A stretch of DNA of 64,000 bases, from contig QPMI01000607.1 in assembly GCA_004431415.1 (NCBI GenBank), forward strand, positions 1 to 64,000, written 5' to 3'. This document shows, piece by piece, positions 28,762 to 59,199 of the stretch. The position numbers were made by a program, and so were the translations under genes. The notes below the pieces were generated by a model that was not told the origin of the DNA, made no database searches, and saw nothing but the letters and a program-made list of their open reading frames with translations. The first letter of the stretch is position 1. Each line of letters begins with the position of its first letter. This DNA comes from Cyanophora paradoxa CCMP329 (taxonomy: Eukaryota; Plantae; Glaucophyta).

Positions 28762-28801
28762 TCTTTCCGCACGCCCTTCGCATCTTTTCCGCATCATCTA
28801 C

Positions 28802-31800
28802 GATCCTGGACGGACCTGCGCATCTTTCCGCACGCCCTCGCGTCCTCACCCATGCCCATCGCTACAGTATTTATTAAACATCTTTTCAAAGCGTTTCGCA
28901 AGCTCTGCGGACGCGACGGAGCACGAGAACCCAGCCGACGCCAAATTCCCCATCCTGGACAGGCCTGCATGTATTTTCGCGCGCCCTCGCCTCCGTATCC
29001 CTGGACATCGATCATGTATGTATCCGAGAGTCTGTTTAAACGATTCACAAGCTCTACGCATGCGCCTGGCCGCGAGATTCTCAATCCTCCCGTCAACGCT
29101 CTCCTGTCAATTTCCTCAGCGCCTGCATGTATTTTCGCGCGCCCTCGCCTCCGTAGCCCTGCACATCGACAGAGAGCGCATTCCAGATTCTGTTTAAGCA
29201 ATTCACAAGCTCTACGCATGCGCCTCGCCGCGAGATTCTCAATCCTCCCATCCGCGAGATTCTGTTTAAGAGATGCATGAACTCTGTGCATGCGCCTGCA
29301 GCTGGCCGCGAGAACCTCGCCCCTCCCTCAACACTCTCCTGTCAATTTCCTCAGCGCCTCCAGGTCAACTACAGCTAGCTGATTGGCAGCACCATCCCTC
29401 CCCTCATTATATTCTCTCAGCCCCAGCAATATTAATTCCCCTAATTACATAATTATATTCTCTGAACACAACTCCTCTCAGGACAACTCCTCCCCTAATT
29501 CTGCTCCCTCTCAGGATCCCTCCCCTCCCCTTTAATTTCATCGCCCCGCCAGACCCCACCCTACCCCACCCGGCCCAGCCACGACGGCCCGCGATAAATA
29601 AGGGGACCGGGATGGGGACCGCGGCGACTCATGATTTAAATAGGGCATGGCGAGGGGCGGGCCGCGACGGGCCGCGATGAACAAGGGGGACGCAAAGGGG
29701 GCGGCAAGGGCTTCGCCCGATGGTTGGGACCCGCAGGGGCCCAGGGCTTGTCGGAAATCCAGATCGGAAATCCATATATTCCCTCTCAGGATCCCTCCCC
29801 TCCGCGGCCGCCAGGCCCCACCATACCCCACGTGCACCCAGCCACCGAGAGCCACGACGGCCCGCGATAAATAAGGGGACCGGGACGGGGACTTGGGGCA
29901 AAGGGAGGGGCGGGCCGCGACGGGCCGCGATGAACAAGGGGGACGCCAAGGGGGCGACGGAGGCTTCGCCCGATGTTTGGGACCCGCAGGGGCCCAGGGC
30001 ATGTCGGGCGAAGCCTCTTCCGTAGGTCGATGGTGAACGGGCGAAATTATTTTTTTCCACTCGAATCCGATTGGTCCGAGCGTCGAGCTTGACAACCTCC
30101 ACGATGAAGGCGAACAGTCTCCGACGTTACATAGCTGAACACGGACATTACACTTATTTTTGGACTCGTGGCTCCCCTCAAATTCCGTCCGGACTCCTGG
30201 GTCCCCGCGCGAAAATCGAATTTCGCTCCTGGATCGATTCCGGTATTTATACCCCCGGTTCGATCCATTACACTTATTTTTGGACTCGTGGCTCCCCTCA
30301 AATTCCGTCCGGACTCCTGGGTCCCCGCGCGAAAATCGAATTTCGCTCCTGGATCGATTCCGGTATTTATACCCCCGGTTCGATCGCGAAGCGCCAAAAA
30401 GTGGGACCCGGTCCCGCCCGGTCCCGCGACGAAAGCGCGCCAGGGATGTCCCAGAACGGTCACAATGACAGCCAAGAGCGCGCGCATTGTGGCAAGCCCG
30501 ATTTCGGCCGCCGCCGACGCTCCACTCCAGAGAGTCGGCCGAAATTTTGATCCTGCCGGTTCCGCCCGGTCCCCCGACGCGCGCAATCGATGCGTACTGG
30601 CGCGCATAGACATAGCAGGGCCTGCGCACTCCAGATATCCGCTTTTCGCAGCCGGAACAGCGCAGGAATGTGCCCGATGGCAAAAATTCGATCCTGCACG
30701 GCCCCGGACATCTTTCCGCGCGCCGACGTCGCGGCGCATGCACGGATCAATAGTATAAGCATTGGAGATGTAGAAATGCATTCTCCATGCTTAACTGATG
30801 CGCCGGGCCGCCAGGATCCAGCCGACCCCAAAATTTGATCCTGGACGGACCTGCGCATCTTTCCGCACGCCCTCGCGTCCTCACCCATGCCCATCGCTAC
30901 AGTATTTATTAAACATCTTTTCAAAGCGTTTCGCAAGCTCTGCGGACGCGACGGAGCACGAGAACCCAGCCGACGCCAAATTCCCCATCTTGGACAGGCC
31001 TGCATGTATTTTCGCGCGCCCTCGCCTCCGTATCCCTGGACATCGATCATGTATGTATCCGAGAGTCTGTTTAAACGATTCACAAGCTCTACGCATGCGC
31101 CTGGCCGCGAGATTCTCAATCCTCCCGTCAACGCTCTCCTGTCAATTTCCTCAGCGCCTGCATGTATTTTCGCGCGCCCTCGCCTCCGTAGCCCTGCACA
31201 TCGACAGAGAGCGCATTCCAGATTCTGTTTAAGCAATTCACAAGCTCTACGCATGCGCCTCGCCGCGAGATTCTCAATCCTCCCGTCAACGCTCTCCTGT
31301 CAATTTCCTCAGCGCCTCCAGGTCAACTACAGCTAGCTGATTGGCAGCACCATCCCTCCCCTCATTATATTCGATCTCTCAGCCCCAGCAATATTAATTC
31401 CCCTAATTACATAATTATATTCTCTGAACACAACTCCTCTCAGGACAACTCCTCCCCTAATTCTGCTCCCTCTCAGGATCCCTCCCCTCCCCTTTAATTT
31501 CATCGCCCCGCCAGACCCCACCCTACCCCACCCGGCCCAGCCACGACGGTCCGCGATAAATAAGGGGACCGGGACGGGGACCGCGGCGACTCATGAAATC
31601 AATATGGCACGGGAAGGGGCGGGCCGCGACGGGCCGCGATGAACAAGGGGGACGCAAAGGGGGCGGCAAGGGCTTCGCCCGATGTTTGGGACCCGCAGGG
31701 GCCCAGGGCTTGTCGGGCGAAGCCTCTTCCGTATGTCAATGGTGAACGGGCGGATCTATTTGTTTTCCACTCGAGTCCGATTGGTCCGAGTGTCCAGAGT

Positions 31801-34137
31801 CGCAACCTCCGCAATGAAGGCGAACGGTCTCCGACGTGACACAGTAGAACTGACAGGCGGCCAACCTCCACTGATTTATTTTCGCAGTCATAGCTCCCCT
31901 AAAATTCCGCCCGTGAGCGTCGCGCGAAAATCGCATTTCCCTCACGGATCAATTCCGGTATTTATACCCCGGCTCGATCGCGAAACCCCAAAAAGTGGGA
32001 CCCGGTCCCGCCCGGTCCCGCGACGAAAGGCCGCCATAGACGCCCCAGAGCGATGCAGAGTTACAGATTAGAGCGCGCACATCACCATGAGCTCGATTTC
32101 GGCCGCCGTCGATGCTCCAGTGCGAAGAGTCGGCCGAAATTTCGACCCAGCCGATCCCGCCCGGTCCCACGACGCGCGCAATCGATGCATTCTCGCGCGC
32201 ATAGACATAGCACGGCCTGCGCACTCCAGGAATCCGCTTCTCGGAGCCGGAACAGTGCAGGAAGGTACCCAGCGGCAACAATTCGATCCTGCACAGTCCC
32301 GGGCAACTTTCCGCGCGCCGACGCCGCGGCGCATGCGCGGAACAATAGCATATGCATTCGAGATGTAGACGAAGCCTTTTGCACGGGCTCCAAATGCGCC
32401 GGGCCGCGAGGACCCAGCCGACCCCGAAAATTCGATCCTGCACGAACCTGCACATCTTTTCGCGCGCCCTCGCAGCCCCACGCATGCCCATCGCTACAGT
32501 ATTCATTTAACATCTTTTCAAAGCCTTCTCCAAGCTCTGCGGACGCGACGAAGCACGAGAACCCAGTCGACACGAAAATTTCGATCCTGGACAGGCCTGC
32601 ACATATTTCAACGCGCCCTCGCCTCTGCAGCCCTGCACATCGATCCTTTATACATTCGAGATTCTGTTTAACCGATCTGCAAGCTCTACGCATGCGCCCG
32701 GCGGCCTGCACGCCACAATCTCGCCTCTCCTCTCAACACTCTCCCCTCAATTGCTGGAATTGCCCCAATTGCAATCACAGCTATAACTACCTGCAGCTGA
32801 TTGGCAGCACCATTCCTCCCCTCATTATATTCTCTCTCGATCCGCCCCACCAATTTCCCTAATACCATAATTATATTCTCCCAGGACACCTGCTCTCAGG
32901 ACAACGCCTTCCCTTATTATATTTCCTCTCACAAGCCCTCCCCTACGAATCCCCTCTCACTCCCAGCCCCACCCATGCATGGCCATCCACTGAGAGCCAC
33001 GACGGGCCACGATAAATAAGGGGGCCGGGACGGGGACCGGGGCGAGTCATGATTTAGATAGAGCACAGCGAGGGGCGGGCCGCGACGGGCCGCGATGAAA
33101 AAGGGGGACGCGAAGGGGGCGGCAAGGGCTTCGCCCGATGTTTGGGACCCGCAGGGGCCCAGGGCTTGTCGGAAATCCAGATCGGCGACCGAAATTCCTG
33201 TAACGTCCGAGAAACGTCCGTCCCACGTGTTCGCCCCGAACTCGTCCTGGATCAATTCACGCACTCACCTCAACAGTGACATGATGCACTGACATCACGC
33301 AACTACCCATCCAATTCCTCTCATGGATCAAATCTCCGGCTTGCATGCCGCCATATCCAGAATCAATTTCGATCCTGGCTCCCCTAAGACGATCGCTCTC
33401 CCTCCTGGATCGATTCCAGTATATCATAGTATATACCACGGTTCGATCGCGAAACTCCAAAAAGTGGGACCCGGTCCCGCCCGGTCCCGCGACGAAAGCA
33501 CGCCAGGGACGCCCCAGAGCGGTATAGAATGAGAGCGGAGGGCGCGCGCACCGCTGCAAGCTCGATCTCGGCCGCCGTCGACGCTCCAGCCCGAACCTTT
33601 TTAAGAGTCGACCGAAAATTTGATCCAGCCGGTTCCGAATGGTCCCACGACGCGCGCAATCGATACGTACTGGTGCGCATAGACATAGTAGCACCTGCGC
33701 ACTCCAGGAATCCGCTTTTCGAAGCGGAACAGCGCAGCAAGGTGCCCGGCGGCAAACATTCGATCCTGCCCAGCCCCGGACATCTTTCCCCGCGCCCACG
33801 CCGCGGCGCATGCGCGGAACAATAGTATATGCATTTCAGATGAAGATAAAGCAATCTGCATGCTTTACAGATGCGCCGGGCCGCGAGGACCCAACCGACC
33901 CCGAAAATTCGATCCTTGACGAACGTGTCCATCTTTCTGCGCGCCCTCGCATCCTCCCGCATGCCCATCGCTACAGTATGCATTTGAGAGCTTTTCCAAG
34001 CTTTGCGCAAGCTCTCTGGGGGCGAAAGAGCACCAGAACCCAGCCGACACCAACTTGGCAAATTTTCGATCCTGGACAGGCCTGGACATATTTCCGTGCG
34101 CCCTCGCGAGCGAGCTCGCCTCCGCAGCCCTGCATGC
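28802..34137. repeat. Macrosatellite array within the second duplication copy
   Basis: Copy of 22465-27795. Confidence 0.93.
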
Positions 34138-35230
34138 AGCTACACATATACAACGCCCGGCTTTTAGACCTCGGCTAATTTAAATTGATATCGTTAGTAT
34201 ATAACCTGTATTTATAATATATCTATCGTGAATATGTGTGTGATTTATCGGTGATTTGTATTTATGTTTTCGTGGGTTATAGCTTCTTTTTAATAAAATA
34301 TGTGAAATATGTATAGTTTCTTTGATCTTTATGTATATTCTCGATGAGTAGACTTATATGTATCGTGAGTTTCATTATAGTATAGGTGTGACTCAACTTA
34401 GTTTAATTATAACTTGCCTCAGTCTAAAAGCTGGGCGTTGTATATGTGTGTTGTTCTGAATTTTCAATATAAAAGCGACGATCACGCGCCGTTTCATCAA
34501 AAACAACTACTATGTGCTGCATGAAACGTTCGCGCGCACCAGTTTCGCACGTAAATGTATGAGTTTCGCACCGAAATCGATCGACGACGCACCGAAACTA
34601 CGCAATTTACCGCAACTACTCAAAGAAACTACGCAATTTAATACCGGGAACTACTGAAAAGATACCAAAACTACGCAACTACGCAACTTTCTGAAAAAGT
34701 CTGAAATTCGGGGTGGGAAAAATTTAGAAAAGTGTAAAACTTGCGTAGTTGCGTAGTTTTGGTTTCGTTTGCGTAGTTTTGGTTTCGAAATGCGTAGTTT
34801 TTCAGGGAAGGTTGAGTAGTTTCAAGTAGTTTATATATTATAAAGTAGTTTCTTATTAATATCAATATGATTCTATGATATATACCATGATTTCACTACT
34901 GAAAAGAGCGCCGGCATAGCTACGCGAGAGTTTCGCACTGTGCCACACAGTGGTTTCGCATGGGCACCGATACTTTCTCACTGAAATGCGCGCGGGCGAT
35001 CGGAGACTACGCAACTTAATTAACTACGCATGGAAACTACGCAATCTGATCGCTTTTAATACCGAAAACTACGCATTTAATACCAAAACTACGCAACTAC
35101 GCAACTTTCTGAAAAAGTTTAGAAGTTGGCGGGGAAAAAAATTAGAAAAGTGAAAAACTTGCGTAGTTGCGTAGTTTTGGTATTAAATGCGTAGTTTCCG
35201 GTATTAAGTTGCGTAGTTTAACATAGGTAG
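34138..35230 (+). mobile_element. AT-rich Polinton-like terminal module, copy 2 (two iteron palindromes)
   Basis: Inverted repeat at 34142-34169 / 34422-34449. AACTACGC arrays face GCGTAGTT arrays at ~34595-34800 and ~35005-35220. Confidence 0.7.
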
Positions 35231-35547
35231 TTGAGTAGCCTTTTGCTTTTCTGTTTTGGAAATTTAGAGGGCCGACCGGCACCGCACCTCTTTTGCATCC
35301 GAGTGTTTCATGCATGCACTAACTGCATTTGCGTGTTGGTGCGGCGCGAACCCAAATTATCGAGGTTGCCGCCCCCAGCCATTTCCATACATGGCCAAGT
35401 TTGGATTTTTTATGGTGGCGTGGCAAGCTCGCTCATGATGCAGCATTGAAAGGGGTATGTCCCCGTATGTACACTCGCGCGGCGGGCTCTGCTCCTGCAC
35501 CCGTCGCGCTCGGGGCGGGCAGGTCGCGGCCGGCGTCCGGCACGCTC

Positions 35548-36475
35548 TCACTCGTCCGCCCCGCGGATCTTTTTGCGGAGCTGCATATCCTTGGGCTGGA
35601 TTGTGATGCTGCGCGCCCTCGGCGGTTACGTGCCCCTGTACGGGGCGCTACAGAGTTTTGGAGGGGGGAGAAGGGGCGGCACACCGCTTGGCATGGATCG
35701 CGAGGAGGTTGCTCCCCTCGAAAGTCTCGATGGTGTAGCTGCGTCTCGACGATCAGTTGCAGAGCTCAGCATTTTGTATACTTGTAAATCTCGCGCACTG
35801 CTCGGTGGCCTCGCGGAGAGCAAGGACGGCCTGCCGGCACCAGCGGAGAGCGGGAGTGTCGGTCAGCCTTGCCTCACGAAGCTCTTTCAGGACATCTTCG
35901 GTGATCTCCTTGACGGTGCGGGTGAATGGGGCCAGCGCAATGATGGGTTCGGTTCGCTTCTGCCACTTGCGAATCTCTCTGCGAGCGACGGAGCATCGGA
36001 TTAATATTCACTGAGCCTCCTACACTTTAAACTTAGACAACGTCATGATCAATTGCAACGTACCGGAGGGCAACCGTGCCTCCGCAAAGGCGTGCGCGGT
36101 TATAAACAAATCAGATATATAGAGATCTAGAAACATTAAGAATGATAGTCACTTTAAAATAGCTATAGTAAGAGATCTAGATCTAGAATGATATCGATCA
36201 TGATACGATGACAGTTGAATCACTTATAGTCACTTTTAATTAATTTAGCCCTTTTGGGTTCAACGGTTACAAGGCTCGCATACTGATCATGATCATGATC
36301 ATGAACATGAACTCGGACCTGGACGGTAACGGTGAGGCTTCTTGACGCCTCCTGCGGCAGGAGCCGCTTTACGGGCCGCCTTTGACGCGAGCTTCCGCTC
36401 GCCTATGTTTGCGAATCGCTTCCGCGGGGCCTTGCCCCCCGTGCTCTTTTGCGCCGTGTGCTTCGTCCGTGCCAT
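35548..36475 (-). CDS. Divergent histone H3 variant, 155 aa, 4 exons (36475-36319, 35994-35799, 35738-35685, 35608-35548), CenH3-like histone fold
   Basis: Manual splice gives [155 protein letters not shown]. Introns 2 and 3 (60 and 76 nt) are GT..GCAG with matching phases. The intron 1 acceptor reads AT, not AG. Confidence 0.88.
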
Positions 36476-36610
36476 CTGGCTAGAGCTTGCTTGGGCCGAA
36501 AGGCCCTGCGGCCTCACCGGTGTGTGCACGCGTGGGTGCTCTTATTTATATATTCGTATACACACGGATTGTTTTTTTTGCGTCGTGCATTTCAACTCAG
36601 AACCAAGAAA

Positions 36611-37247
36611 TCAAGGGGCGTCGGACTCGGATTTCGAGCCGTCGGCGTCCGAGGCCCCGGCGGCCTTGATGCGAAAGACGTTCTTCGGCATGCGAACGAG
36701 CGGCTCGCCCTTGCTGTCGACGAGCTTCCTCACGCGCTCGTCGAGCCGCTTCTCGATCTCCTCGAGCGCCGCCTCGTCGGCGCGCTGCAGGTTGGGGAGA
36801 AAGGCGACAAAGTCCGCCGGGCTGACTCCGTCGCCCACCACGCGCGCGAGGCCCGGGAGGCGCTGCAGGACGCGGGCGCAGGCCGCCAGGTCCGAGTAGG
36901 CCTTGGCGCACACCGAGCGCTCCTCGAGGCGGAGGCCGCAGGCCTCGAGGATGTGGTTGTAGCGCGGCTCGACGCGGTCCCGCCGAAAGTAGCCCCAGCT
37001 GCGGGGGTTCCGCCCGTTGGCCTCGACGTAGCGCTCGTACGCGCCGAGGATGCCCGTCGAGGCGAGGAGGAGGCAGCGTATCCGCTCCCGCCCCGCGTGC
37101 TGGGCCCGCAGGAGGAGGGCCCGCCGCGCCGCGGGGTCCCCGTCGAGCTGGATCCCGACGAGGGCGGCGTCGACGCCGCGCCGCAGCCCCCGCTCGAGCT
37201 CGCGGAGGGAGAGCGTCCCCTCGCTCCTCTCCGAGACCGCCTCTTCC

Positions 37248-37285
<38 letters not shown>

Positions 37286-38634
37286 CTCGTGCTCCGCGTC
37301 CGCGTCCGAGCCCGAGTCCGACGTCTCCTCGCCGTCCCGATCCCGATCGGCCGCCTCGAGCTGGGTCTCGAACTCGGCCCGCTTCTGCTCCTCCCACTCG
37401 TTCATCGGCCCGTCCTCGCCGGTGGGCTCGCCTCCGGATCCACCTCCGCCGCCGCCCGCGCCGGGGGCCTCGGTCTCCTCGCCCGCGCCCTCGCCCGCGC
37501 CCTCCTCGTCCTCCTCCTCGTCAAAGTCCTCGCGCTTGCACGTGTAGGCGTCGTAGAGGATGCGCTGCAGCTTCTCGCTCTCCCACGGCGGCCGCCGCTC
37601 CGACGAGGCGGGGCGGCGCTGCCGCTTGGCCGGCGGGCCCTTGGGCGCCTCGATGGCCAGCGGCGGCTCCTCGTCCTCGAGCTCGTCCTTGTCCTCGGCG
37701 GCCGCGGGGGCCATGCGCCTCGCGCGCGTCGCCCGGGCCGCCGGTGCCGGCGCCGGCGCCGGAGCTCCCCCGGCCGCCGCCGCAGAGCTCCCCTCGGGCG
37801 CCGTCGAGGCCTGCGAGGCCCCGGCGCGCCCCGAGCGGCGGGGCGTCGACGCGTTCGAGTCGGTCCCGCCCTTGCGCGCGGGCGCGGGCTGGGCGGCCGC
37901 GGGGAGCCCCCGGCGGGAGGCTCCTGGGAGGCAGACTCGGCCGCGGGCGCCGCCGGTCCCTGGACGAAGAGGGCCCCGCCCCGCCGCTCGTCGGGGGCGC
38001 GCGGCGGCACGAGGCCAGCGCGGCGAGCTGGATCGCGCGCGAGACGCCCTCGGCCGCCGTCCAGGACTCGGGGCGCTCGGCCTCGTGGACAAAGGCGCGG
38101 TAGGCGAGGTAGCCGTCGACGCGCGACGAGGGGACGAGCGCGGAGAGCGTCGGGTGCGGCTCGCTGCACGCGTTCTGGAGCATGGGGCACTCGACCTCGC
38201 CCTCTTCGTCCCCGGCCGCACCCGTGGGCGCCAGAACCTGCGCAGAAGGGGGCGTTGGGCGGGGGGGGAGGGGGGGGGGTACGGTGGGGGTACGGGCGCG
38301 GGGCCGGCACCTTGGGGACGCAGGCGAGGCACACGAGGCCGTGGCGCTGGAGCAGGTGGCCCGTCGGCTCGTCGTTGAGGTCGATCGCGCGGTCGAGGTC
38401 GCCCCCGCCGGCGAGCTCGGCGATGCTCCTGGCCAGGCATGCCGGCACGTACGCCGGCGGGAGGAGCCGCTCCGCGGCGCAGACGCTGCACCGGGGGCGC
38501 ACGTCGAGCTCCAGCCAGGCCGAGATGTACTTGGGGCGGGCGATCCGCACGGGCCGCGCGTCGATCGGCGGGGCCCCCGATGCTGCATCCTCCTGGGAGG
38601 ACGCCGCCTGCTTGCCCTTGGCCTTGGCCCCCAT
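36611..38634 (-). CDS. Unknown protein, spliced: N-terminal CxxC pairs, acidic/low-complexity middle, helical C-terminal domain; paralogue of 41468-44107
   Basis: ATG at 38634 (MGAKAKGKQ..RCSVCA..GLVCLACVPK), intron 38310-38238 (GTGCCG..GCGCAG), and coding-like C-terminal ORF 36611-38491. The middle junction is unresolved. Confidence 0.6.
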
Positions 38635-39343
38635 CGAGACCGCGGGACCCGTGTTCCCGGTACCCCCCGCTCGAGCCGAGGGGGGTACGCGGGCTCTTTC
38701 AATCCTGCACGCGGGAATGAGAATCCGTGGGGGTGGACTGCAGCTCTTTATGAATTTCCTCTGCGCGGGGATCGGCACCTGGGGGCGGGGGGAGGCCGCT
38801 GTACCCCTCCCCCGCGCCGCATGTGGTTCCACGGGGGGCTGCATGCCGGTCAGGGGGCGTTGAAGGGGGTACGGTGGGCGATGAAGTGAGAGAGGGGGTA
38901 CCGAGCTCTAGGGGGAAGGGCTGACCGCGATGCAACCGATCGCCCCACTAAAGAGTGCAGGGGCCCCTCCCTCTGCGCAGCATTTCGACGTACCCTGTCG
39001 CCGCTTTGATCAGCCCCCCCCTCCCCCCTCGCGCGGCCGGCGGGCCGGGGCCGCGCGCGCAAGAGTCGGACCCGCGCACCGCGAGATGCAAGGCCGGGCG
39101 GAGAGCGTGCCGTCGGCGGCGCGGGGGGAGAGGCCGGGGCTCGCAAAGTCGGGCGCGTGGGGTGCGGCTTGTACCCCTCTCTTGCCTCTACTGGCCCTCT
39201 CCTAGCCCCTGGAGCGGCTGCATGACGGCCAAGGGGCGAGGAGGGGAGGGAGGGGGGGAGGGGGGGGGGGGGGGGAGGAGGGGGGAGTGAGGGGCAGGTC
39301 TACGAGTTTGGAGAAGAAAGAGGGTACCGGGAAATCTTTCGAC

Positions 39344-40210
39344 GCGTGACCGCGATCCAGCCGGTTGCCGTACTCACTGCGCGGCGGGAAAACGCCGCCG
39401 TACCCCCCACCAGCCCTCGCCTCCTCCGGCCCTCTCCTAACCCCGGGAGCGGCTGCATGGTGGTCAGAGGGGGAGAGAGGGGGAGCGAGCAAGGTGGGGC
39501 TACAAGGTTTCAAGGGTAGAAAACAAGGGTACCGGGCGATCTTTTCAATGCGTGACCGCGATGCAGCCGGTTGCCGTACTTAACGCGCGGCTGGGGAACG
39601 CCGCCGTACCCCCCCTCCCGCCAGCCCTCGCCTCCTCCGGCCCTCTCCTAACCCCGGGAGCGGCTGCATGGTGGTCAGAGGGGGAGAGAGGGGGAGCGAG
39701 CAAGGTGGGGCTACAAGGTTTCAAGGGTAGAAAACAAGGGTACCGGGCGATCTTTTGTGACCGCGATGCAGCCGGTTGCCGTACTTGAACGCGCGGCTGG
39801 GGGACGCCGCCGTACCCTCCCGCCAGCCCTCGCCTCCTCCGGCCCTCTCCTAACCCCGGGAGCGGCTGCATGGTGGTCAGAGGGGGAGAGAGGGGGAGCG
39901 AGCAAGGTGGGGCTACAAGGTTTCAAGGGTAGAAAACAAGGGTACCGGGCGATCTTTTCAATGCGTGACCGCGATGCAGCCGGTTGCCGTACTTAACGCG
40001 CGGCTGGGGAACGCCGCCGTACCCCCCCTCCCGCCAGCCCTCGCCTCCTCCGGCCCTCTCCTAACCCCGGGAGCGGCTGCATGGAGGTCAAAGGGGGAGC
40101 GAGCAGGGCAGGGCTACGAGGTTCAAGGACAAAAAAAGGGTACCGGGCCGTATGTCGATGCGCGGCCGCGATGCAGCCGCCTGCCGTACTTGCTGTACGG
40201 CGGAAAGGCG
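39344..40210. repeat. ~207-bp tandem repeat (4 copies plus degenerate flanks), each with an internal imperfect inverted repeat
   Basis: GTGACCGCGAT(G/C)CAGCCGGTTGCCGTAC at ~39345, 39552, 39757 and 39965. Inverted partner CGGCTGCATGGTGGTCA within the units. Confidence 0.92.
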
Positions 40211-41467
40211 CCGCCGGACCCCCCTCTGTTTCAACCCCACCCCCGCCGGCCCTCTCCCGACCCCGCGAGCGGCTGCACGACGGTCAGGCGGGGAGAGAGC
40301 CGGGCAGGGTACGGGAGCGCGGACGAAGTTCTCCCCACGTACCCCCGCGTGACGGCACCTGCTGCGGGCGGCGTTTCGCGCCGGCGGCCGGCGTCGGGCC
40401 GGCGCAGCGCTAGAGGTGCGCCGCGAACCGTCGCACGCGTCCGCCTCGCGTCTCCTCTACCCCCGGGATCCCTCCCCCTGCGGGCGGGAGACGGCTGCAT
40501 CGCGGTCAGACGGGCGGGCGAGCGGGAGGTCGGGGCGGGGGGAAAGACGGGGGAGCGCACGGCGCGGCCCGCAGAGCTCGAGGCGGCCGACCCGGTGCGA
40601 CCCGAAAGCGGCCGACCCGGGACGAGGGCGCGGGGGATGGGGGGAGGGAGGGGGCGGGCGGGGGCGCGCTTGGAACCGTACCCCCCGCGCTCCATCGCAC
40701 GCCGCCTTGATCCGCCCGACGGCCGCATCCTGGCCAGAGGGATCAGATCCAGAGGGCGCGGCGGGACGGGAATCGGGGGCGGGACGCACGGGTACGACCC
40801 GCTGCGCCGCCACCAAGCGTAAGGCGGCTCGGCGGCTCGACGAGCGCCGACCGGCGCGCCGCGCGGCGGGCCCGCTCACGCCTCTCGCAGCCCCGCCGCG
40901 GTCCGAGCAAGGGCTGGACTGCGGTCAGCGCACCCCGCGCGCGCGGGGAAACGGGGACGCGCGCGGCGAGAGCGCACACGCACTAGTACTCGGGTCCCGG
41001 GGGGCGGGGCGCGTGCGCCGGCCACGATGCAGCCGATCGCGGGACGACGATGCCGAGAGCTGGCTGCAGCGATGATGCGCAGGCGCAGGCGGCGCTGGAG
41101 CCGGGCGGCCAAGCTCAAGGATCGGCAGCGGCTCGGATCGCCAGCAGGATCGCAGCGAGGGCGCCGGTGAAGAGCTAGAGGACACCTGCCGTGCGCAAGA
41201 AGCCGATGCCCTCCGGCCGCTCGCCCGCCTCGAGCGAGGCCTCGGGCCGAAGACGCGCGGGGGCGGCGAGCGGCGAAAAGCTCGACCTGCCGCGAGGTTC
41301 CTCGCGCACGCGACGCGCCCCAGGACGCGCAACCTCCTCGCCACGCGCACCCGAGAACGCCCCAAGCCGACCCGGCTAGGCTCAATGCGTACCCCTTTTT
41401 GCGCCGGCCAGCGGCGGCTTGCGGCTAGCCCGGCTTGAGGACTCGTCGAGCGCTCAACGAGTCCTCG

Positions 41468-43015
41468 ATGGAGGTTAGCGTTCCAATCGAGTTCAACACG
41501 GTCGGCAAGTGCATCTTTGAGATTGCAACCGCCCTGGAAGCCGCCGGCTGGGCGGGGGCCTGCGCAGTCTGCCGGCGTAACAGCGAAAAGCCCGTCGTCT
41601 GCCCCTGCATCGAAGCCGAGCTGGAGACGCTGCTAGGGCGGCCGGACGAGCGGTGCAGCGGAGCCGGCGGAGAGCGGCCAGCGCCGGCCGTGGAAGCGGC
41701 CCTGAAACTCAGCCTCGATGCGCTGCGGTGCTCCAGCTGCGCCACGGGATCTGGCGCGGCGGATCACGAGCACTCGGCGCTGTACGAGAAGCTCCGGGAG
41801 GTTCTAAAGACGGGCGCCGGCTTGCGGTGCCTCGGCTGCATCGGCCAGGAAGCCAGCATAGCGCTCGGTGCGTGTCCCCCGCGCCGCGTGCCGGCGCGTC
41901 GGCGGAGCGCGCTCCCGCGCATTAGCTATAGGGCGCTGCCGGCGCAGCCAGCGTTAGCTCGCGACGCCCGCTGCCGGCCGGCCGCCGACCTCGCCTTTTG
42001 CGCAGACCAGGGCAGGAACCCTACCGGCGTCCAGTGCGATAGGTGTCAGAAAACGAGGGACGTGGGCGAGTTTGTGCACTGCTCCCTGCTGGAGGCGTGC
42101 CTCTGGGCGCGGCGCTTCATCGGCAAGGAGCCCCCGGAGCCCCCCGTCTGCAGGCCCGTTCTGGAAGTCTTCCGCGAACTTTGCATCGGGAGCTACATGG
42201 GTGTCGCACCGGGCGGGGCCACGGGTAAGGCCTTGCCAACCCCTTGCCGCGTCGCGCCGCGGACCGAGTCGCGCCGCTCACTCTCTTCCGCGCCCGCGCG
42301 CCGCGCGCCGCGCGTGCAGAGCGCCCTTGCCTCGGAGACGGGTCGTCCGAGGGTGCGCCGCGCGCGCTCCTCCGGCTTACCCTTCTATCAATTCACTCGC
42401 GCGCGCTCAGGGGAGGCCTGCGCGGCGCTCGAGGGGCGAGGGGGCGAGCCGGGGAGCCCGGAAGCATCGGACGAAGAGGGCGGTGCGCGCTCCGCCCCAC
42501 GCCCGGCCGCGGCCTCGAGCGCGTGCCTAGAAGAATCGAGGCGAAAGGGGGGAGGGGGGAACCAACGGTGGGCCCCGCCACGCACGCGCGCAGATGCCCC
42601 GGCCGTCCCGGAGCCCCACACGGGTACGCCGCTCCGCTCACCCACGCCCTCCCCACCTACCCCCAAGCCGCGCCCATGTACCCCGGGCTCTGCGTGCGCC
42701 GACGTCGAGCGCAACGCAGAGCCGCCCAATGCACCCGGAGAGGGGGCCGGCGTGGGGAGCTCGGGGGGCGACAGGGGTGCGCCCGACGGCAAGGGGGGTA
42801 CGGGCTTCCCGCCCCACGCCAACTCGCCGCGCCTTGCCAACCCTGCGCTCGATTTTGAAGCCGCCCCAGCGCCCGAAGAAGCACCCCTTGTCGAAGACGG
42901 GAGCGACGGAGACGACGAGGCCGGCGAGGAGGGCGGGGGCGGCGAGAGAGGAGCGCCCACGGCAGGCCCCAGCTCTGCCGAGCAGCGCGGCAACGGCGGC
43001 GGCGTTGGCAGCGGC

Positions 43016-43046
<31 letters not shown>

Positions 43047-44107
43047 GCAGCGGCGGCAGCGGCCGCCCGAAGAGGGGCGCGGCGGCGGCGGCGGCGGCGG
43101 CAGCAGCAGCAGCAGCAGCAACAGCGGCGGCGGCGGAGGCGGCGGCACCTGCCGCCGCCGCAGAGGGCGGAGAGGCGGGGGGCGGAAAGGGGTCGCAAAG
43201 CAAGAAGAAGAAGAAGAGCGGAGCCGGCAGCGGCAAGCCCGCCCCCAAGAAGAGCGGAGCCGACGAGGCGGGGCCCTCCGGTGCCGAGGACGACGACGTG
43301 GGGCGCTCCCTGCAGCTGGTGGACAACGACTACGACGAGGAGCGGCCCCGCAAGGGCCCGCGATCCCTCGCCGAGCGGCTGCGGAACCCAAAGGTGGTCG
43401 AGGTGCTCCGGAAGGCGTTCGCGGAGCCCAGCCCCGCCGCCGACGGCTCGGGGGCCCCGGGCCCGAGCAGCGGCAACAAGGGCAAGGCCGCGGCCGGCTC
43501 GAAGCGGGAAAGGGGCGCGGAGGCCGGCGCAGAGGCGGAGCCGGATCCGGGGCGCCAGCAGCTCGAGCAGCTCGACCTGGACCTTCGGGGCGGCAAGCGG
43601 GCCGCCGTCGAGACGGTCGGCGAGCAGGTATGCGAGACCAAGGCCGTCCTCGAGGCGCTGGAGCGCAGGTTCGGGGGGGCGGAGGAGCAGCGCATGCGGG
43701 GCGGCTTCCTCGTCGCGGCGGGCGTTCTGCACCTCGCGGAGAAAAAGTTGGGAGGGGGCAGGCGAGGGCGCTACGATCGCCTGAAGGGGCTCCGCGGCGG
43801 CGACAAGAACGGCCTCGGCTGCCACTGGCCGGCGATCCAGAAGGAGGTGGAGGGCAAGTTCGGAGACGCGCTGCGGGCGGGGCACTTTCTCGTCGACCAG
43901 CGGACGTTTAGCGCCCTGCTGAGTGTAGGCGCCCTCGTCCGCGAGCGCCCGGCCTACGCCAACGTAGTGGGCCCCGTCCGCGCCCTCGAGTTTTTCCGCT
44001 GCCTCGCCATCGTGGCCAAGGCGGGTGAAGACGAGCTGCGCGAGCTGCGGGCGAGCCTCGGGCCCAATTGCAAATTGTCCGCCGAGCTCTTTTTCGCCAA
44101 CAAGTAG
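41468..44107 (+). CDS. Unknown protein (ORF 890 aa, probably with retained introns): CxxC motifs, Gly/Ala tracts, helical C-terminal domain; paralogue of 36611-38634
   Basis: Long ORF with CAVC..CPC, RCSSCA, GLRCLGC and CDRC. Probable intron at ~41868-42005 (GTGCGT..GCGCAG). The C-terminus aligns by eye with the 36611 protein. Confidence 0.65.
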
Positions 44108-44255
44108 AGCAGCTGCGGCCCCCTTGATTCCACCCCCACCCGCGCGCTGAGTATACGTAGCCCGAATGAACACTGCAAACTTTTCAAAGTTCTCATTGCG
44201 GCGGGCGGGAATAAATTGGAACATGCCTCGCATTAATACACAGATCAATTAAAGT

Positions 44256-46008
44256 CTAGGATGGGGAAATAGATGGCGGGATCGATATCGAGGCGGGCGC
44301 CCCGAACAGGCTGCTGGGGAGGTCGTCAAAGGACCACGTGGCCGCCCAGCGCCGCTCCAGACCGTCGTCCCGCGTCAGCATCCAGAGCATCTCGGCCGCC
44401 GCTCTTTGCGGCGGCGGCAAGGAAGGGGAGGGGCGCAGGGGCGCCGCTGCGGGGGCCCGGGGGGTCGGGACTGAGACGGGCGCCCCGAACAGGCTGCTGG
44501 GGAGGTCGTCAAAGGACCACGTGGCCGCCCAGCGCCGCTCCAGACCGTCGTCCCGCGTCAGCATCGAGACAATCTCGGCCAACGGCGACAGCTTCTGCCG
44601 CCGCCGGCGGCGGCTGCCGCTGCTGCCGGCGCCGGCGGCCGAGCCCGGGGCGCGCCGCTTCTTCGACTTTGCGCCGCTGCCCTTGCGCTTCGAAGTCGCC
44701 CTCAGGACGGGCGGGCTGTCCCACCACTCGCCGAAACGCGGGTCGAGGGGAAAGGGCTCGGGAGGGGCCGGCCCGTCGCCGTGAGCGGCGCGCTTCGGCG
44801 CCCCGCCGTCCGAGCGGCCCAGCCGTCGCTTTGTGTGCTCCGACTCGAGCACCTCGTCGCGGCTGCACGTCCCGAGCCTGGACTCTTCCAGCGCCTCGAA
44901 CAGCCGCGGAAAGTAGCCGCCGCCTGCGGCCGGTCCGGATCAGATCGTCCCACAGCGAGGCGGGAGAGGCGGCGGCGGCGGGGGGCGATACCGTAGCTGG
45001 ACAGGAGGATCTGCGGCGGACGGAAGAAGCCGACGTCAGCCGCCGGCAGCCGCCGAGGCCGCGACAGGCACGATGCGCACCTCTTGGCCGTGCCGAATGG
45101 ATTTGGTGGCGCGGACGGTGACCGTCTTCCTCCTGGTGTCGGCCGAGAACCTGGCGTTGGCCCTTGACCGGACGGGATACGCGCAGTTGAGGAAGCGCCC
45201 CGTAAAGTTCTCCAGCGCCGCATCGATGTAGTGGCAGGAATCGATTTTGAAGCAGTAGCTGCGCCCGCCGGGCCCCGCGCAGGTCGTGAGAGATGGTTGG
45301 GGCGAGCCGGACGGCGGACGCCCAGGCGCTCCGGCGGGGCGCAAGGGTGGGGAGCTTACACCCAGTCCCCGGTCCCCTCCATCTGGTCGAGCACGTGAGG
45401 GTCCGGGTTGCACAGCAGGATCCTGCGCGAGAGGCTCGGGGGGCGAGCTTGCAGGGGCGGAGACGGAGCAGCGCCCGCGCGGGGACCGGCGCACCCGTCG
45501 TACGGGCAGATAAAGTAGCGCGCGCTCGGTCCAAAGACCTCGACCTCTTCCGGCCTCTTTCCGAGGGCCGCCGCCGCCGCCAGCGCCTCGGGCGACGCCA
45601 CCGCGAACAGTCCCTCGCCGTCGCACACCGTGGATCGGCCGATCCGAAGCTGTTTTGGGCGGATTCGCTCTCAGAAAAGGAAACAAAAACAGATTTTGGC
45701 CAGGCCGGCCCGCCGCCGCGCACCCCACACTGGGCGAGGTGCTCCGCGCATAGCGGCGTCTTCTTTGTGAGCGCGGTGCAGCCCTTCCGCGCGCATCTCC
45801 GCAGATGAGACTCTTCGGACAGCCGTAGTCGGAGCTTCTCGCACTGCCCGCGGTCGTACTTTGCAAGGCGCTCCTGCACGAGCTGCAGCTGGACCCGCGC
45901 CTGATCAGCGCTCTGCCGCGGGGTCTTCTTCGGACGCGGCGGTGGGATCGATATGCATTGTGTGATCCGGAACTGTCGCAGGGCGCGTGAGGCCTCGCGG
46001 GAAGGCAT
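44256..46008 (-). CDS. Spliced SET-domain protein (putative lysine methyltransferase), ~6 exons
   Basis: Joining GT..CAG introns (e.g. 45723-45650) gives ..CARKGCTALTKKTPLCAEHLAQCG-LRIGRSTVCDGEGLFA..ICPYDG-..GDWV-YCFKIDSCHYIDAALENFTGRFLNCA..ANARF..VTVRATKSIRHGQE-ILLSSY-GGGYF. This contains SET motifs GxGLFA, RFxN and GxE..Y. Confidence 0.82.
44293..44565. repeat. ~90-bp direct repeat in the 3' exon of the SET gene
   Basis: Encodes MLTRDDGLERRWAATWSFDDLPSSLFGAP twice. Confidence 0.9.
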
Positions 46009-46128
46009 GGCCCATGCCGCGCGTCGCGTGCGTGTCTACCCCCAGCTTGGCGGCAGCGCCGCGCGTTTAAAAACGTAGAACCGCTGCAGCTCGCCCCGGG
46101 GGCAAGGATGGACGCCACGAATGCAGCG

Positions 46129-46425
46129 ACACATAGACAATGCCCGCGTTTTATCCCTCGGCTAAGTTTAATTATAATTTGTTTATAATTTACCTATATT
46201 TCTTGCATATTTAACGTTAATTTATGTGTATTTTATCCTTTATTCTTGTCTTTTATGTGCGTATTTCATATATAATACTAACGTATCCCTTACTGAAATT
46301 TAATGTATTCGTATCTCCGATGTATTTTACCTCTATCTCTCGTAATCACTTGTATTTGAGGTGGATTTTAAACTTAGATAAATTATATCACGCCTCCTGA
46401 TAAAACGCGGGCATTGTCTATGTGT
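46129..46425. repeat. Perfect 27-bp inverted repeat enclosing ~240 bp of T-rich DNA at the element end
   Basis: ACACATAGACAATGCCCGCGTTTTATC (46129-46155) and its exact reverse complement (46399-46425). Confidence 0.95.
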
Positions 46426-46770
46426 GATATTACGCATTATCGTGTATAATGATATGGAAATAATATGTGTATGCATTGTGAATGAATAATATGTAAAATA
46501 TGTAAAATGTATCAAAAGAAATATGTATGAAATTCTAACGGAATTCCGTCGAAAAATAATAAAATGTACTTTCTCGATTAAATGCGTAGCATATATGGAG
46601 CGGATATGGCGCCGCGATTGTGTTAAAACAGCTACAATGTGCTGTATGGAGCGCGGGGTGTATAATACAACAAGGATAATATATGATACTTGATGATACT
46701 TTATGATTACTTATAGTATTTTATGACTGATATTATGTTATTTTAATGGGTTCTTACTGATAATGGTATG

Positions 46771-46860
46771 TGTTACAGGTGTTACAGGTTCATCCCAAAC
46801 TTTCCCTAGGAGGAGGTCGGCGGCTTGGAACTTTGGGATTGACCTGTAACACCTGTAACA
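46771..46860. promoter_or_regulatory. Palindromic iteron pair (9-bp GTTACAGGT x2 facing ACCTGTAAC x2), origin-like
   Basis: TGTTACAGGTGTTACAGGTTCATCCCAAA ... TTTGGGATTGACCTGTAACACCTGTAACA. Confidence 0.6.
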
Positions 46861-46910
46861 CCACACTGAAAAACAATTAATTAACCTGTTACATCTTCTT
46901 TTACCACTTA

Positions 46911-47367
46911 TTACCGTGTCGGAAATCTCGATACTTTATGTCTCTCCGTATTAGGAGATCCACCAAAGATACCTATTATCCTCTCTTCTATTAACGATGA
47001 TATATTACATGTCTTTCCCTCCGCGTCCCTTCCGCAACTGAATATATCGATGGCTAACATGCCCTCGTCTGAGTAACAATGAGCGGTGCAATGACTCTCA
47101 TCTAATAGGAGAACTAATGTAAAACCCGGAGGTGAAAGACCACCATCGAAAATCTCGTAATGCTTGTGAACTACTCGTATACCTTGTTCTTGTATAATAT
47201 CTTGTAAAAAGTGCATTAACCATTTTGTTGTGGTCTCTAAGTTGTCCACTCCCGTAATTAGAAGAAGAAGAGTATGTATAAGACACGCCCAAGCCGGTTG
47301 TGCGGTTTTTAATTAGCGGACTCGAAAACTTGTAATCTAACATCACATGGAAGCCCCGATGGTTCAT
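46911..47367 (-). CDS. speD: S-adenosylmethionine decarboxylase proenzyme (small prokaryotic/viral type), one frameshift near 47270
   Basis: N-terminal GFHVMLD, then F..PPGFTLVLLLDESHCTAHCYSDEGMLAIDIFSCG, which contains the ESH autocleavage site and the DIFxCG motif. Confidence 0.88.
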
Positions 47368-47411
47368 TTATGAATTATATAGAAAAATTAAATTACGGAA
47401 ATAAGGTAAAG

Positions 47412-48812
47412 ATGCCGTCAGCACAGATAGGATTAAGACCCACTCCAAAGATCGTAAAGAAGAGCATGAAAGAAGATCAGGGTAACATGCTACCTATAAC
47501 CATTCCGATAGAACAGAAAAACACACGAATTTTAAAGAAGTCTGAGATAGTTAAAGAACTGATCCCGGAGGCATTGCCTACTGATACTGTAACGAAAGAA
47601 TCTAAGATTGCTAAGAAGTTTTACGATCCGCGCACCGGATACAAGGGTTTCGGAGCTATGAGGAAGGAGTTACCAGATGAAGACTATAAGAAGATGAAAG
47701 AATGGTATGATAAACAGGAAGTCGTTCAGATTAACGCGCCTACCCTTTCAAGAAAGAGAGACCCGATGATACCAATTAGGCAACCTCTCGATACCTATGT
47801 TATAGATCTTCTGTTTTTCCCGGCTTATAAGAAGCAAAATGACGGATACGATACGTTTATGTCCGCGATGGAATCAACGCTTAGAACAGGTTATATTATT
47901 CCGATGAGAGATAAGAGCGCTATTACGACTCTTGCCGCTTTCGAACAGCTACAAAAGAGAGTCCCTCGACCTATCGCACGCGTCCAAAGTGATAGCGGGA
48001 GCGAATTTACGAATACGGTGTTCACTAACTACCTTGCTAAGAAGTTCATCGATCATCAGATTAGCGATGTCGCAGATCATCGTAGTCAGGGTAGAATTGA
48101 AGCGTTTAACAAGCAGATCAAGCGGCTTATTACGAACTATTGCATAGCAAACAACACAGCGCGATTTTTCGATGTATTGGGTGACATTGAGTATAATTAT
48201 AATCATACTGTTCATTCAGCGACTAAGAGAAAACCCGCAGAAACCACAGATGAGCATTATAGAGAGATCATAGGTTTAGAAGACGAGAAGTTTAAGAAGT
48301 CGATGGCTTACTTAGACGGTATTCAAAAGGGTATGTTTGTGCGGGTGAGAATAGAAAAGAACCCATTCGCTAAACAGGGTGTCAATTGGTCGCGGATCGT
48401 TTATACTGTCGAGGGTAGGGAGGGTTTTAAGTTTCGGTTACGAAATCCGAATGGTGAATTGGTCGATGGAAGGTTTGCTTTCCACGAACTGTTACCTATC
48501 AAAGGTGTAGAGTATCATGAGGCGCCCACAGGTGATGCATTAGAACAAGCCAAAGAAGAAGCGCGTGTGGATGCGGCGATACGAAAGGAAGGCATCGAAA
48601 AAGCGGATGATGTCCCAGAAGAACCGCTAACACAAGCCAGAACTAAGAAGAAAGGGAAGGCGGAGCGTGAAATTAAGAAGTTGGTCATAGCAGGAACCCA
48701 GAAGCTATCAGAGGTCAACAGCCAGAGATGGTATACAGACTTCCAGACCTCAAAAGAGACATATACAGCACCTCAAACCCGGGTAAATCTACGATCCAGT
48801 TCCCGGAAGTAG
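47412..48812 (+). CDS. Retroviral-type (rve, DDE) integrase of the Polinton class
   Basis: FYDPRTGYKG; IDL (D), QSDSGSEF (D), GRIEAFNKQIK (E); YNHTVHSATKRKP; C-terminal G..VRV..F.K..NWS..Y.V..GRF..HEL block. No chromodomain is evident. Confidence 0.93.
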   Translation: MPSAQIGLRPTPKIVKKSMKEDQGNMLPITIPIEQKNTRILKKSEIVKELIPEALPTDTVTKESKIAKKFYDPRTGYKGFGAMRKELPDEDYKKMKEWYDKQEVVQINAPTLSRKRDPMIPIRQPLDTYVIDLLFFPAYKKQNDGYDTFMSAMESTLRTGYIIPMRDKSAITTLAAFEQLQKRVPRPIARVQSDSGSEFTNTVFTNYLAKKFIDHQISDVADHRSQGRIEAFNKQIKRLITNYCIANNTARFFDVLGDIEYNYNHTVHSATKRKPAETTDEHYREIIGLEDEKFKKSMAYLDGIQKGMFVRVRIEKNPFAKQGVNWSRIVYTVEGREGFKFRLRNPNGELVDGRFAFHELLPIKGVEYHEAPTGDALEQAKEEARVDAAIRKEGIEKADDVPEEPLTQARTKKKGKAEREIKKLVIAGTQKLSEVNSQRWYTDFQTSKETYTAPQTRVNLRSSSRK

Positions 48813-48938
48813 CTTAGATGCGTAGAGGATGAAAAGAGGATTCCGGCGATGGTCGCGGTTTTGAAAGGCGATCAGTTGGTGAAGAGTTATAGCAGTTTGT
48901 ATGAATTTCTTGGAATTTTTGGTTTCTTTGGGTTTCTT

Positions 48939-49062
48939 CCCCCATCGTTCTGACTATTTCCCCCATTGTTCTGACTATTTCCCCCATTGTTCTGAAACCA
49001 TCCCCCATCGTCCTGAAACCATCCCCCATTGTCCTGAAATCATCCCCCCATCGTCCTGAAAT
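48939..49062. repeat. 21-bp tandem repeat, ~6 copies, between convergent genes
   Basis: CCCCCAT(C/T)GT(T/C)CTGA..... repeated. Confidence 0.9.
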
Positions 49063-49360
49063 GTCCGAAATTCCCACGACATATATACACCATATATACA
49101 CGACATATTTACACTATATATACCAAAACCTCCGTAATGCCGTTTGACCGAGAACAAAATGTTTGGAAAAAATAATAAATAATATTATTATATATACATA
49201 TACATATATATAATCAAAAAATCGGAAAAAAACCCCTCGTTTTTCTACCGTATAAATGCGCCCGTAACATCGACTCTCATAGTCGGAGCATTTATATATA
49301 CCAAAGGATAAATACGTATATATCGTGTTCTCAATGGATAACCTATGTAAAATACATCAT

Positions 49361-50779
49361 TTACCGAAAGTGGGAACCCCATAGCATATGATACATCCCA
49401 GAGTTATTAGCATTATTTATATTCTCACATACAAACATTCTATTTACACCCTCATATTTGATAAATGACCATGTTATATCATCTTGCGATGTCGCAACAT
49501 TGAAAGTCTTAATAAACGCAGTTGTTATACCTGAACCATATGCAATTATAGAAGCGACCTCAAATGTATATGGGAAGGCTATTTGCAAATATTCAGTAGG
49601 CGTTTCCCATACTCCGTTAATTGCGGATGCATTCGCTTCCCATCCAGTTAATGATGGGCGGGCTTTAAATGCCTCTTTTCCGAATTTTGCAGAAGAAGCG
49701 GTAAACGCATTATCTGATAGAAGATACCAGTTAGCATCGATAGGAGGTATGTTATTAAGGGTGGATGATACATAGGATCTTACAGGGTTCTTAATCTCAT
49801 AGTTTGTAACAAGTAACTCACAGAGTCGATCTATCATGGCGTCGTTTGCTTGTATATACGTTTCAGTCGCCGCGATCATGTCTGGAATCTTAGAAGTATC
49901 ATCGAGGGAGTTTAAGATATCTTTCGGAAGCGGCACAGAGATACGGTAGTATCGCGCGTATCCTTGGTCATCATTATATGGTAAAAACTCTTGCATCTTT
50001 TCAAGAGCCGATAATTCACTTGCAGCCATTAGCATATTGATTAATGGACTCCCTGAGGTGGAAGCAATCCATGAAAGAATACCCCAGGTATTCACACTTT
50101 CGTAAGAGTAACCCACATTTGGTGCGTCGGTTTCGTTAACCTCACCACATGATATGCTAATAACTATAATATCGTCATCGTTATCATAAATCTTTTTTGC
50201 GTGACTATAACCACAAACACTTGGGTTATTGTTACCTGATATAGCACCATCAATTAGACACATGCCGTTGTAATCGACAGGAGCAAAATATGTAGGAGCG
50301 GCGGAAGTAGAACGTGCCGCTATTTTACTTGGTATAGTCTTGTAATCATTATCATTTGCTATGAAAATTGGTTTCATGCTTACAGTGTCGAACGTCGTAA
50401 TAACCACATCTTTTAGTGAATCTTTTATGAGAGCTTCCCCAGTCACAGAGAAAATAGCGGTTTCTAATGGTGATACATCATATTTAGTATTGAAAAGTGC
50501 ATTCTCTATGATATTCCGCGGATTCGCAAAGATGAGAGGAAGATGATATAGGTAAGTATTGTGAAGGTCGGTAGCTGTTAATTTAGGTTCATCGGGAAAT
50601 TCGGGATTTTTCACATTGAGACCGATAGCGATAATACCGCCTGTGGACGTTCCACTTACAAGATCGACCAAATCAATAACGCGTTTACCCGTTCTTGTTT
50701 CTATTTCTTTTAACAACCTTGTTATGATAATACCACGTGCGCCGCCGCCGGACAATGCTAAAACTACGCGTAAGGGCAT
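49361..50779 (-). CDS. Patatin-like phospholipase fused to a C-terminal F5/8 type C (discoidin)-like domain
   Basis: Patatin motifs LSGGGARG, GTSTG, SAAPTYF and DGA..NNP. The C-terminal FTASS..A..AR...W...EYLQI......I...G.....KTF.V..S.D...W......F pattern fits F5/8C. Confidence 0.88.
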   Translation of the reverse strand: MPLRVVLALSGGGARGIIITRLLKEIETRTGKRVIDLVDLVSGTSTGGIIAIGLNVKNPEFPDEPKLTATDLHNTYLYHLPLIFANPRNIIENALFNTKYDVSPLETAIFSVTGEALIKDSLKDVVITTFDTVSMKPIFIANDNDYKTIPSKIAARSTSAAPTYFAPVDYNGMCLIDGAISGNNNPSVCGYSHAKKIYDNDDDIIVISISCGEVNETDAPNVGYSYESVNTWGILSWIASTSGSPLINMLMAASELSALEKMQEFLPYNDDQGYARYYRISVPLPKDILNSLDDTSKIPDMIAATETYIQANDAMIDRLCELLVTNYEIKNPVRSYVSSTLNNIPPIDANWYLLSDNAFTASSAKFGKEAFKARPSLTGWEANASAINGVWETPTEYLQIAFPYTFEVASIIAYGSGITTAFIKTFNVATSQDDITWSFIKYEGVNRMFVCENINNANNSGMYHMLWGSHFR

Positions 50780-50828
50780 CTTTACTTTATTGAAATTTAA
50801 TAAATCTCTATTATTAGAGTAACCAGGG

Positions 50829-55019: not shown

Positions 55020-55038
55020 CTATTTCGTAATTATAAAG

Positions 55039-56108: not shown

Positions 56109-56130
56109 TATTATCTGTATAGTATAAAGA

Positions 56131-57149: not shown

Positions 57150-57170
57150 TTTTCTCTCTATAAAATAGGA

Positions 57171-57437: not shown

Positions 57438-57472
57438 ACATTATTTTTCTTTCCTTCTTAGTAAAAGAAGCA

Positions 57473-58314: not shown

Positions 58315-58333
58315 TTATGTTTTAATATATTAA

Positions 58334-59179: not shown

Positions 59180-59199
59180 ATCTAAGGTATATATAGGGA

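Follow-up and report, generated by a model that had tools for sequence, protein, structure and literature searches.

The ends of Polintons (Mavericks) and of Polinton-like viruses (PLVs) start with AG. Such an end stands before four compact genes in a stretch of the glaucophyte Cyanophora paradoxa CCMP329, positions 1 to 64,000 of contig QPMI01000607.1 (tig00021338), and this whole stretch of 64,000 nucleotides is referred to here as the window. The block in question (34138-46124) encodes a histone H3 variant, two related proteins (genes 2 and 3) and a SET-domain protein. We favor, with about as much doubt as confidence, a reading in which the unit formed by the H3 variant and gene 2 makes up the cargo end of a Polinton-type element family, old and non-autonomous, that would be moved in trans. 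What speaks for this reading is the combination of a common end structure, a clean cut in the adjoining satellite and a gene unit that is repeated and dispersed.

Several described systems resemble parts of this locus. As in the Polintons and PLVs treated in the accessible part of PMC12220804, the left end of the block (end A) is homologous to a PLV end, starts with AG and is followed by iteron-like palindromes. The neighboring element B has an integrase and a PTR-PTR-H-lectin fiber, an architecture which the same source, in that part, reports once, in a C. paradoxa PLV. Unlike these elements, the block is GC-rich, holds spliced chromatin genes in place of replication, integration and capsid genes, and shows no far end. 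Selfish elements with histone or writer genes have also been described, and silencing evasion proposed for them: according to the accessible part of 10.1101/2021.11.30.470311, transposons carry SET, PHD and chromo fusions, and histones occur in giant viruses, nudiviruses and polydnaviruses. The word 'Polinton' is absent from the main text of that paper, as far as accessible. The present locus differs from the cases given there in that its genes are separate and spliced, and in that an H3/CenH3 hybrid and a RING-like family stand behind a Polinton-type end. Our literature search, which covered titles and the starts of abstracts, returned no eukaryotic mobile element with a whole H3 variant together with likely writers. 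Fungal Starships, KDZ transposons with TET/JBP and plant VANDAL elements with VANC are similar in their variable cargo or element-encoded chromatin modifiers, and differ in their mobilizing enzymes; we know of none among them that carries a histone H3 variant.

A Polinton-type end in front of four genes

The features of the block and of its right border are as follows.

34138..34449, + strand: end A, with an AG start; AT-rich unit of ~310 bp bounded by an inner inverted repeat
34564-34819 and 34974-35238, no strand: two iteron-like palindromes of module A, built of AACTACGC repeats
35548..36475, - strand: H3 variant, 155 amino acids; exons 36319-36475, 36064-36079, 35799-35978, 35685-35738 and 35548-35608
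36611..38634, - strand: gene 2 (tig00021338_g20368), with a predicted RING-like zinc domain, a low-complexity linker and a helical C-terminal domain
38836..40742, no strand: tandem array of a ~210-bp unit, with 9 copies of a core motif, flanked by genes 2 and 3, which point away from it
41468..44107, + strand: gene 3, 692 amino acids in seven exons; distant paralogue of gene 2, with spliced contigs in runs X17 and X18
44256..46008, - strand: SET-domain gene (tig00021338_g20370, P0001), 455 amino acids, with an N-terminal Cys/His cluster
46125..46425, + strand: end B, left end of a PLV; homologous to end A and oriented the same way

The sequence-only reading, an earlier annotation of this DNA, had placed a Polinton-like terminal and origin module ahead of the genes, and such a module is indeed present (module A, 34138-35238). 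It combines the AG start with the inner inverted repeat of end A (arms 34142-34186 and 34405-34449) and with the two iteron-like palindromes, which may act as an origin. At 34138 a satellite unit gives way exactly at the AG of module A, while an intact unit near 2470 is the same as the sequence before 34138 to the last base and then stays satellite. Satellite sequence was not found to the right of 34137 within the window. Cut at the AG and not resumed, the satellite thus makes module A look like an insertion whose other end lies beyond the window or has been lost. The CpG observed/expected ratio of module A is 1.77, as against 1.0-1.2 elsewhere, in a host that methylates CpG. In the DNA run X1 there is a strong joint from 35238 back to 34830, which suggests other copies of the module with a different number of iteron units.

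Ends A and B align over ~330 bp, each has an inner inverted repeat followed by iteron-like palindromes, and ATGC directly precedes both. The two point the same way and therefore are not the end pair of one element, an arrangement that we considered and rejected; neither has an inverted outer partner within the window. The block had been described as lying between Polinton-type ends, which does not hold in the sense of a matched pair, as end B is best read, on sequence, as the start of a separate PLV, whose insertion lies 116 bp upstream of SET. This distance, from the SET start codon to 46125, agrees with the earlier estimate of ~115 bp, and the junction between SET and end B is bridged by a 1620-nt X1 contig.

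The four genes and their copies elsewhere

All four genes predicted in the block are real. The H3 variant has five exons separated by four GT-AG introns, reads without an internal stop and matches Pfam Histone at E 3e-7. Its tail aligns end to end with ordinary H3 (E 4e-13), save for an 8-residue insert, and keeps lysines 4, 9, 14, 27 and 36. Loop 1 has 11 extra residues, Q68 is lost, a tryptophan stands at 84 and T118 is kept. The C-terminal half scores 55.3 bits with Cse4 vs 52.4 bits with H3; for the middle exon alone, H3 gives the best score. Centromeric histones (CenH3, CENP-A, Cse4) are recognized by a divergent tail, a longer loop 1, loss of Q68, replacement of F84 and T118, and presence in one or a few copies. 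The variant is like them in its loop 1, its lack of Q68 and its W84, and unlike them in its canonical-like tail, its retained T118 and its several copies. We therefore rejected filing it as CenH3. By these criteria its sequence is that of an intact hybrid, with a canonical-like tail and a CenH3-like fold, so that the earlier description as a CenH3-like H3 variant stands for loop 1, Q68 and W84, and fails for the tail, T118 and copy number. A putative centromere role is backed by nothing more than these fold features and the neighboring satellite.

Genes 2 and 3 had been called two related CxxC proteins, and they are distant paralogues. Two domain profiles of the gene-2 family match gene 3 at 9.1 and 13.3 bits, scores reached by none of 500 local shuffles; a third, short profile gave no match to gene 3, and the full-length family profile missed it. 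The splice model of gene 3 was built on contigs of runs that are guessed to be RNA (X17, X18 and X21 are such runs). Among the contigs listed, no long one covered the H3 variant or SET, which carries no information about whether they are expressed. Within the window, the gene 2 frame has two breaks (near 37900 and near 37957), and at each of them X1 contigs have one extra base; the breaks reflect either an assembly error or a broken copy. In the tandem array between the two genes, the units hold a short inverted repeat, and the array may be a shared regulatory or origin-like element.

A RING/U-box-like domain is predicted for the gene 2/3 family. The model of the gene 2 N-terminal domain (predicted local distance difference test, pLDDT, 82.7) finds RING, SP-RING, U-box or E3 complexes in all of its top 20 structural rows, with a best Z of 6.2 (the tool's mark is 8) at a root-mean-square deviation of 3.0 over 90 residues, while no Foldseek match has E below 0.5. 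The fold thus resembles the E3 ligase domains of RNF8, Ring1B, TRIM and CHIP. Unlike these, gene 2 has a long helical insert, lacks His at the usual fourth ligand and stays below Z 8; the canonical C3HC4 spacing is not present, and a Pfam scan of 17 proteins gave no RING match. The C-terminal domain is modeled with confidence (pLDDT 87.5) but resembles no known fold: no structural match with E below 1 was obtained, BFVD included, and a further structural comparison gave a best Z of 5.1; a PDB profile search returned nothing, and the Atlas gave only mixed matches near 0.9.

The gene-2 family appears to be private to C. paradoxa. Searching with the C-terminal domain recovered 9 proteins among 1.84 billion representatives and 8 among 7,990 scored candidates. 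With cluster members, the family comprises 17 models on 16 contigs, all from C. paradoxa, and no member from outside this species was found among the 1.84 billion representatives; neither IMG/VR nor JGI held a relative. N-terminal identity to the window copy runs from 99% to 22%. In the family tree, built without four of the 17 models (P0002, P0005, P0010 and P0011) and with gene 3 as a long, compositionally odd branch, near-identical clusters lie inside deeply split subfamilies, a pattern in the sequences that suggests repeated copying over a long time.

The SET protein passes the Pfam SET cut-off (23.8 vs 22.4 bits) and keeps the main motifs, with GxG, YxG and the final Tyr present and NC in place of the usual NH, in agreement with its first annotation. 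Viral members make up 96-100% of the three Atlas clusters that it matches best (score 0.94), which we treat as a lead on its origin and not as proof. Relatives were not found in IMG/VR, JGI, phage records or PHROGs. In the last SET exon, a 108-bp direct repeat (44290-44397 and 44473-44580, 96%) duplicates a C-terminal peptide.

No whole genome was used, and the evidence on other C. paradoxa loci is thus indirect. The genome is reported to comprise 712 contigs and ~100 Mb, with probable haploidy (accessible part of PMC6704402). The clearest second locus is on tig00021583, where model P0002 fuses gene 2 to the H3 variant in the same order as in the window; its gene 2 N-terminus is 97% identical and its H3 variant agrees in 73 of 74 residues (99%). 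It is the only other long H3-variant match (one of 186 candidates). The sequence-only reading would have been undone had the genes been single-copy, and for the H3 variant and gene 2 the opposite was found: both are multi-copy and are linked on tig00021583.

More loci are suggested by the orthogroup table of PMC6374488 (supplementary file 5), from which all H3 orthogroup counts are taken among the entries listed. The H3 orthogroup has an estimated 35 or so C. paradoxa members, with at least 13 on at least 12 contigs listed. Of the seven gene-2-family contigs that can be checked in the listed range, five carry an H3-orthogroup gene. With contigs taken as equal, the hypergeometric P for this overlap is 0.002 to 2e-6 for 60 to 250 contigs; with generous size weighting, and a chance of 0.2 to 0.3 for each contig, the binomial value is 0.005 to 0.03. 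On overlapping contigs, three orthogroups confined to Cyanophora (OG0002525, OG0001121 and OG0003039), known from identifiers alone, recur within a few gene numbers of each other and of H3 genes. On tig00000269, for example, gene numbers 5, 9, 11, 14, 17 and 21 hold clustered orthogroup and H3 genes, and six neighboring gene identifiers on that contig are absent from the orthogroup cells listed. One of the three, OG0003039, not verified as the gene-2 family, shares six of its 11 listed contigs with that family. In P0017 and P0018 (tig00000526 and tig00021741), a TFIIB-like gene stands beside a member of the gene-2 family or is fused to it in the model, and it is possibly another cargo of the unit. 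Long X1 contigs match the window without any other letter in gene 3 and SET, and X1 contigs with many differences cover the spacer and the 3′ end of the H3 variant (35251-35650). Judging from distances, the variant contigs would reach to ~13 bp from module A, which suggests, at the level of sequence, that other H3-variant copies are also joined to it.

The satellite and the neighboring virus

The block is flanked as follows.

1788..34137, + strand: complex satellite of 16-17 units, mostly 1.3-1.7 kb, the last unit cut at 34137
13794..22314, - strand: LINE-like retrotransposon of ~8.5 kb in the satellite; Pfam Exo_endo_phos E 2e-8 (APE endonuclease)
22465-28767 and 28802-35109: tandem duplicate of 6.3 kb; the copies are 99.87% identical, with 1 mismatch and 7 gaps between them
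27796..28767, + strand: truncated second copy of module A, its first 970 bp, inside the tandem duplicate
46125..64000, no strand: element B, a separate PLV, AT-rich (39% GC), intron-free and running off the window

The adjoining satellite had been given as longer than 30 kb. It does span 1788-34137, a length that includes the LINE-like insertion and the tandem duplicate. The LINE-like element has a repeated target-like motif on both sides and a YADD reverse transcriptase motif that was read directly in the sequence; the Pfam scan gave no reverse transcriptase match. Its coding sequence is distributed among four frames that overlap. The tandem duplicate, by its sequence, is either a very recent duplication or an assembly artefact. 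As it carries the module A copy at 27796-28767, an independent insertion at that place was rejected.

Element B has frames for S-adenosylmethionine decarboxylase, integrase, patatin, the PTR-PTR-H-lectin fiber and a polymerase-like protein. Its integrase is of the rve type expected of a PLV, with Pfam rve at E 5e-4 and NCBIfam IS481-type at E 2e-14, both below cut-off. Capsid proteins, a packaging ATPase and a far end were not recognized in the 17.9 kb inside the window. Nine of its proteins were not found by exact-sequence look-up, and the integrase and end motifs had no relatives in IMG/VR or JGI. The decarboxylase lies right inside the PLV end (46911-47216, - strand, Pfam E 8.5e-12). Several related fiber-like open reading frames, some of them broken, stand in tandem at 55039-59179, and the polymerase-like coding region (60015-63081) is split. 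A third iteron-like palindrome (63087-63316, TTAGGCACC repeats) lies between the polymerase-like frame and the last open reading frame. An Rfam search gave no match.

Possible origins of the block and what they would mean

If a Polinton-type family has the H3 variant and gene 2 at its cargo end, the rve integrase of a PLV would recognize the AG end and insert the element, so that related viruses such as the neighboring PLV would move it in trans, with the iterons acting as origin. The cargo would have gained its host GC content and its introns through long residence. Gene 3 and SET are probably variable cargo of the window copy. The H3 variant, with the main modifiable tail lysines kept, is predicted to be loaded differently from bulk H3 because of its CenH3-like loop 1 region; methylation of histone would fall to the SET protein, and attachment of ubiquitin or SUMO to chromatin factors to the RING-like proteins. 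Together, such a set would let the element stay expressed within repeats that are silenced. In C. paradoxa, CpG methylation is found on repeats and on virus-like genes, most of them silent (accessible parts of PMC12344493 and preprint), while gene 3 has spliced contigs in X17 and X18. A bolder version, which we consider unlikely, would have the family still mobile: a giant non-autonomous Polinton-type family that inserts into satellite with its own chromatin kit (the H3-tail/CenH3-fold hybrid histone, a virus-type methyltransferase and RING-like ligases), sets up a private chromatin state and competes for or seeds centromeres.

A number of observations weigh against a cargo end. Among the 12 block frames scanned, only Histone and SET were matched and none matched integrase, polymerase or capsid; lacking pPolB, an rve integrase, capsid and packaging genes, the block is not an autonomous Polinton or PLV member, while its end does start with AG and is homologous to a PLV end. 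Its genes have 54-77% GC, against 39% in the PLV, and have introns. A far end or target duplication of the block was not seen within the window. At 28767, a truncated copy of module A has been rejoined to satellite, and rearrangement can thus bring the module to lie beside unrelated DNA. Gene 3 is not among the 8 matches from the 7,990 candidates of the gene-2 C-terminal domain search. No second close SET copy was found (one of 57 candidates passed, the window locus itself), and therefore joint movement of all four genes is not demonstrated: of their proposed co-occurrence, the pair of H3 variant and gene 2 is repeated, and SET, in this search, is not. H3-orthogroup genes elsewhere are known as identifiers only and may be ordinary H3. 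By the Atlas's own statement, the taxa given in a row do not indicate gene transfer. Lastly, many of the clustered genes stand low or last in the gene numbering of their contigs, as would be expected just as well if recombination had spread contig-end repeats. The idea of a virus-derived or element-borne unit is partly supported, by the multi-copy linked pair and the viral SET clusters, and not by the ends, which are unmatched, or by the copy number of SET, for which no second close copy was found.

With the far end missing, no mobility genes and local rearrangements, a strong rival is segmental duplication, which we rate as possible rather than probable. Host gene families would have spread in satellite-rich or chromosome-end regions, and module A, as the remnant of a PLV, would have come to adjoin the H3 gene through a deletion and been copied passively since. 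In favor of this, the tandem duplicate already brings a truncated module A back against satellite, the genes contain introns and are host-like in GC content, the block is without a mobility gene, and the clustered orthogroup genes are often near contig ends by gene number. Such an origin sits less well with a satellite interrupted precisely at the AG of an end that is homologous to one of a PLV, with a gene set (H3 variant, virus-like SET, TFIIB-like neighbor on two contigs) that is one-sidedly concerned with chromatin and transcription, and with a gene-2 family for which the 1.84 billion representatives gave no member outside C. paradoxa. The block could also derive from an ancient giant-virus integration; the viral genes for chromatin and transcription would since have acquired introns and multiplied, and the PLV ends would have inserted later. 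Giant-virus insertions have been reported in C. paradoxa (accessible parts of PMC12344493 and preprint), the SET look-alikes are virus-dominated and the TFIIB-like gene lies beside family members on tig00000526 and tig00021741; yet the block holds no giant-virus core gene, the family and SET have no viral relative in IMG/VR nor the C-domain in BFVD, and the H3 tail is ordinary eukaryotic, all of which makes this origin improbable.

Least probable of all, and in our view very much so, is that the H3 variant is the real centromeric histone of the host, amplified, with the satellite as the centromere. The slightly better Cse4 score of the C-terminal fold, the longer loop 1 with Q68 lost and W at 84, and the adjoining satellite would agree with it; the canonical-like tail with its 8-residue insert, the retained T118, the multiple copies and the middle exon that alone scores best with H3 would not, and a difference of 3 bits is small. 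A CenH3 gene, moreover, can sit away from a centromere.

If the cargo-end reading is true, the locus would be a testable case of an element that rewrites its own chromatin while its host uses CpG methylation to silence repeats, and a private set of histone, methyltransferase and ligase is predicted to be useful to an element in CpG-methylated DNA. Even under segmental duplication, a species-specific family of H3 variants and RING-like proteins, linked on many contigs, appears to be undescribed. A natural hybrid of H3 and CenH3 bears on the origin of centromeric histones and on the unstudied centromere of glaucophytes.

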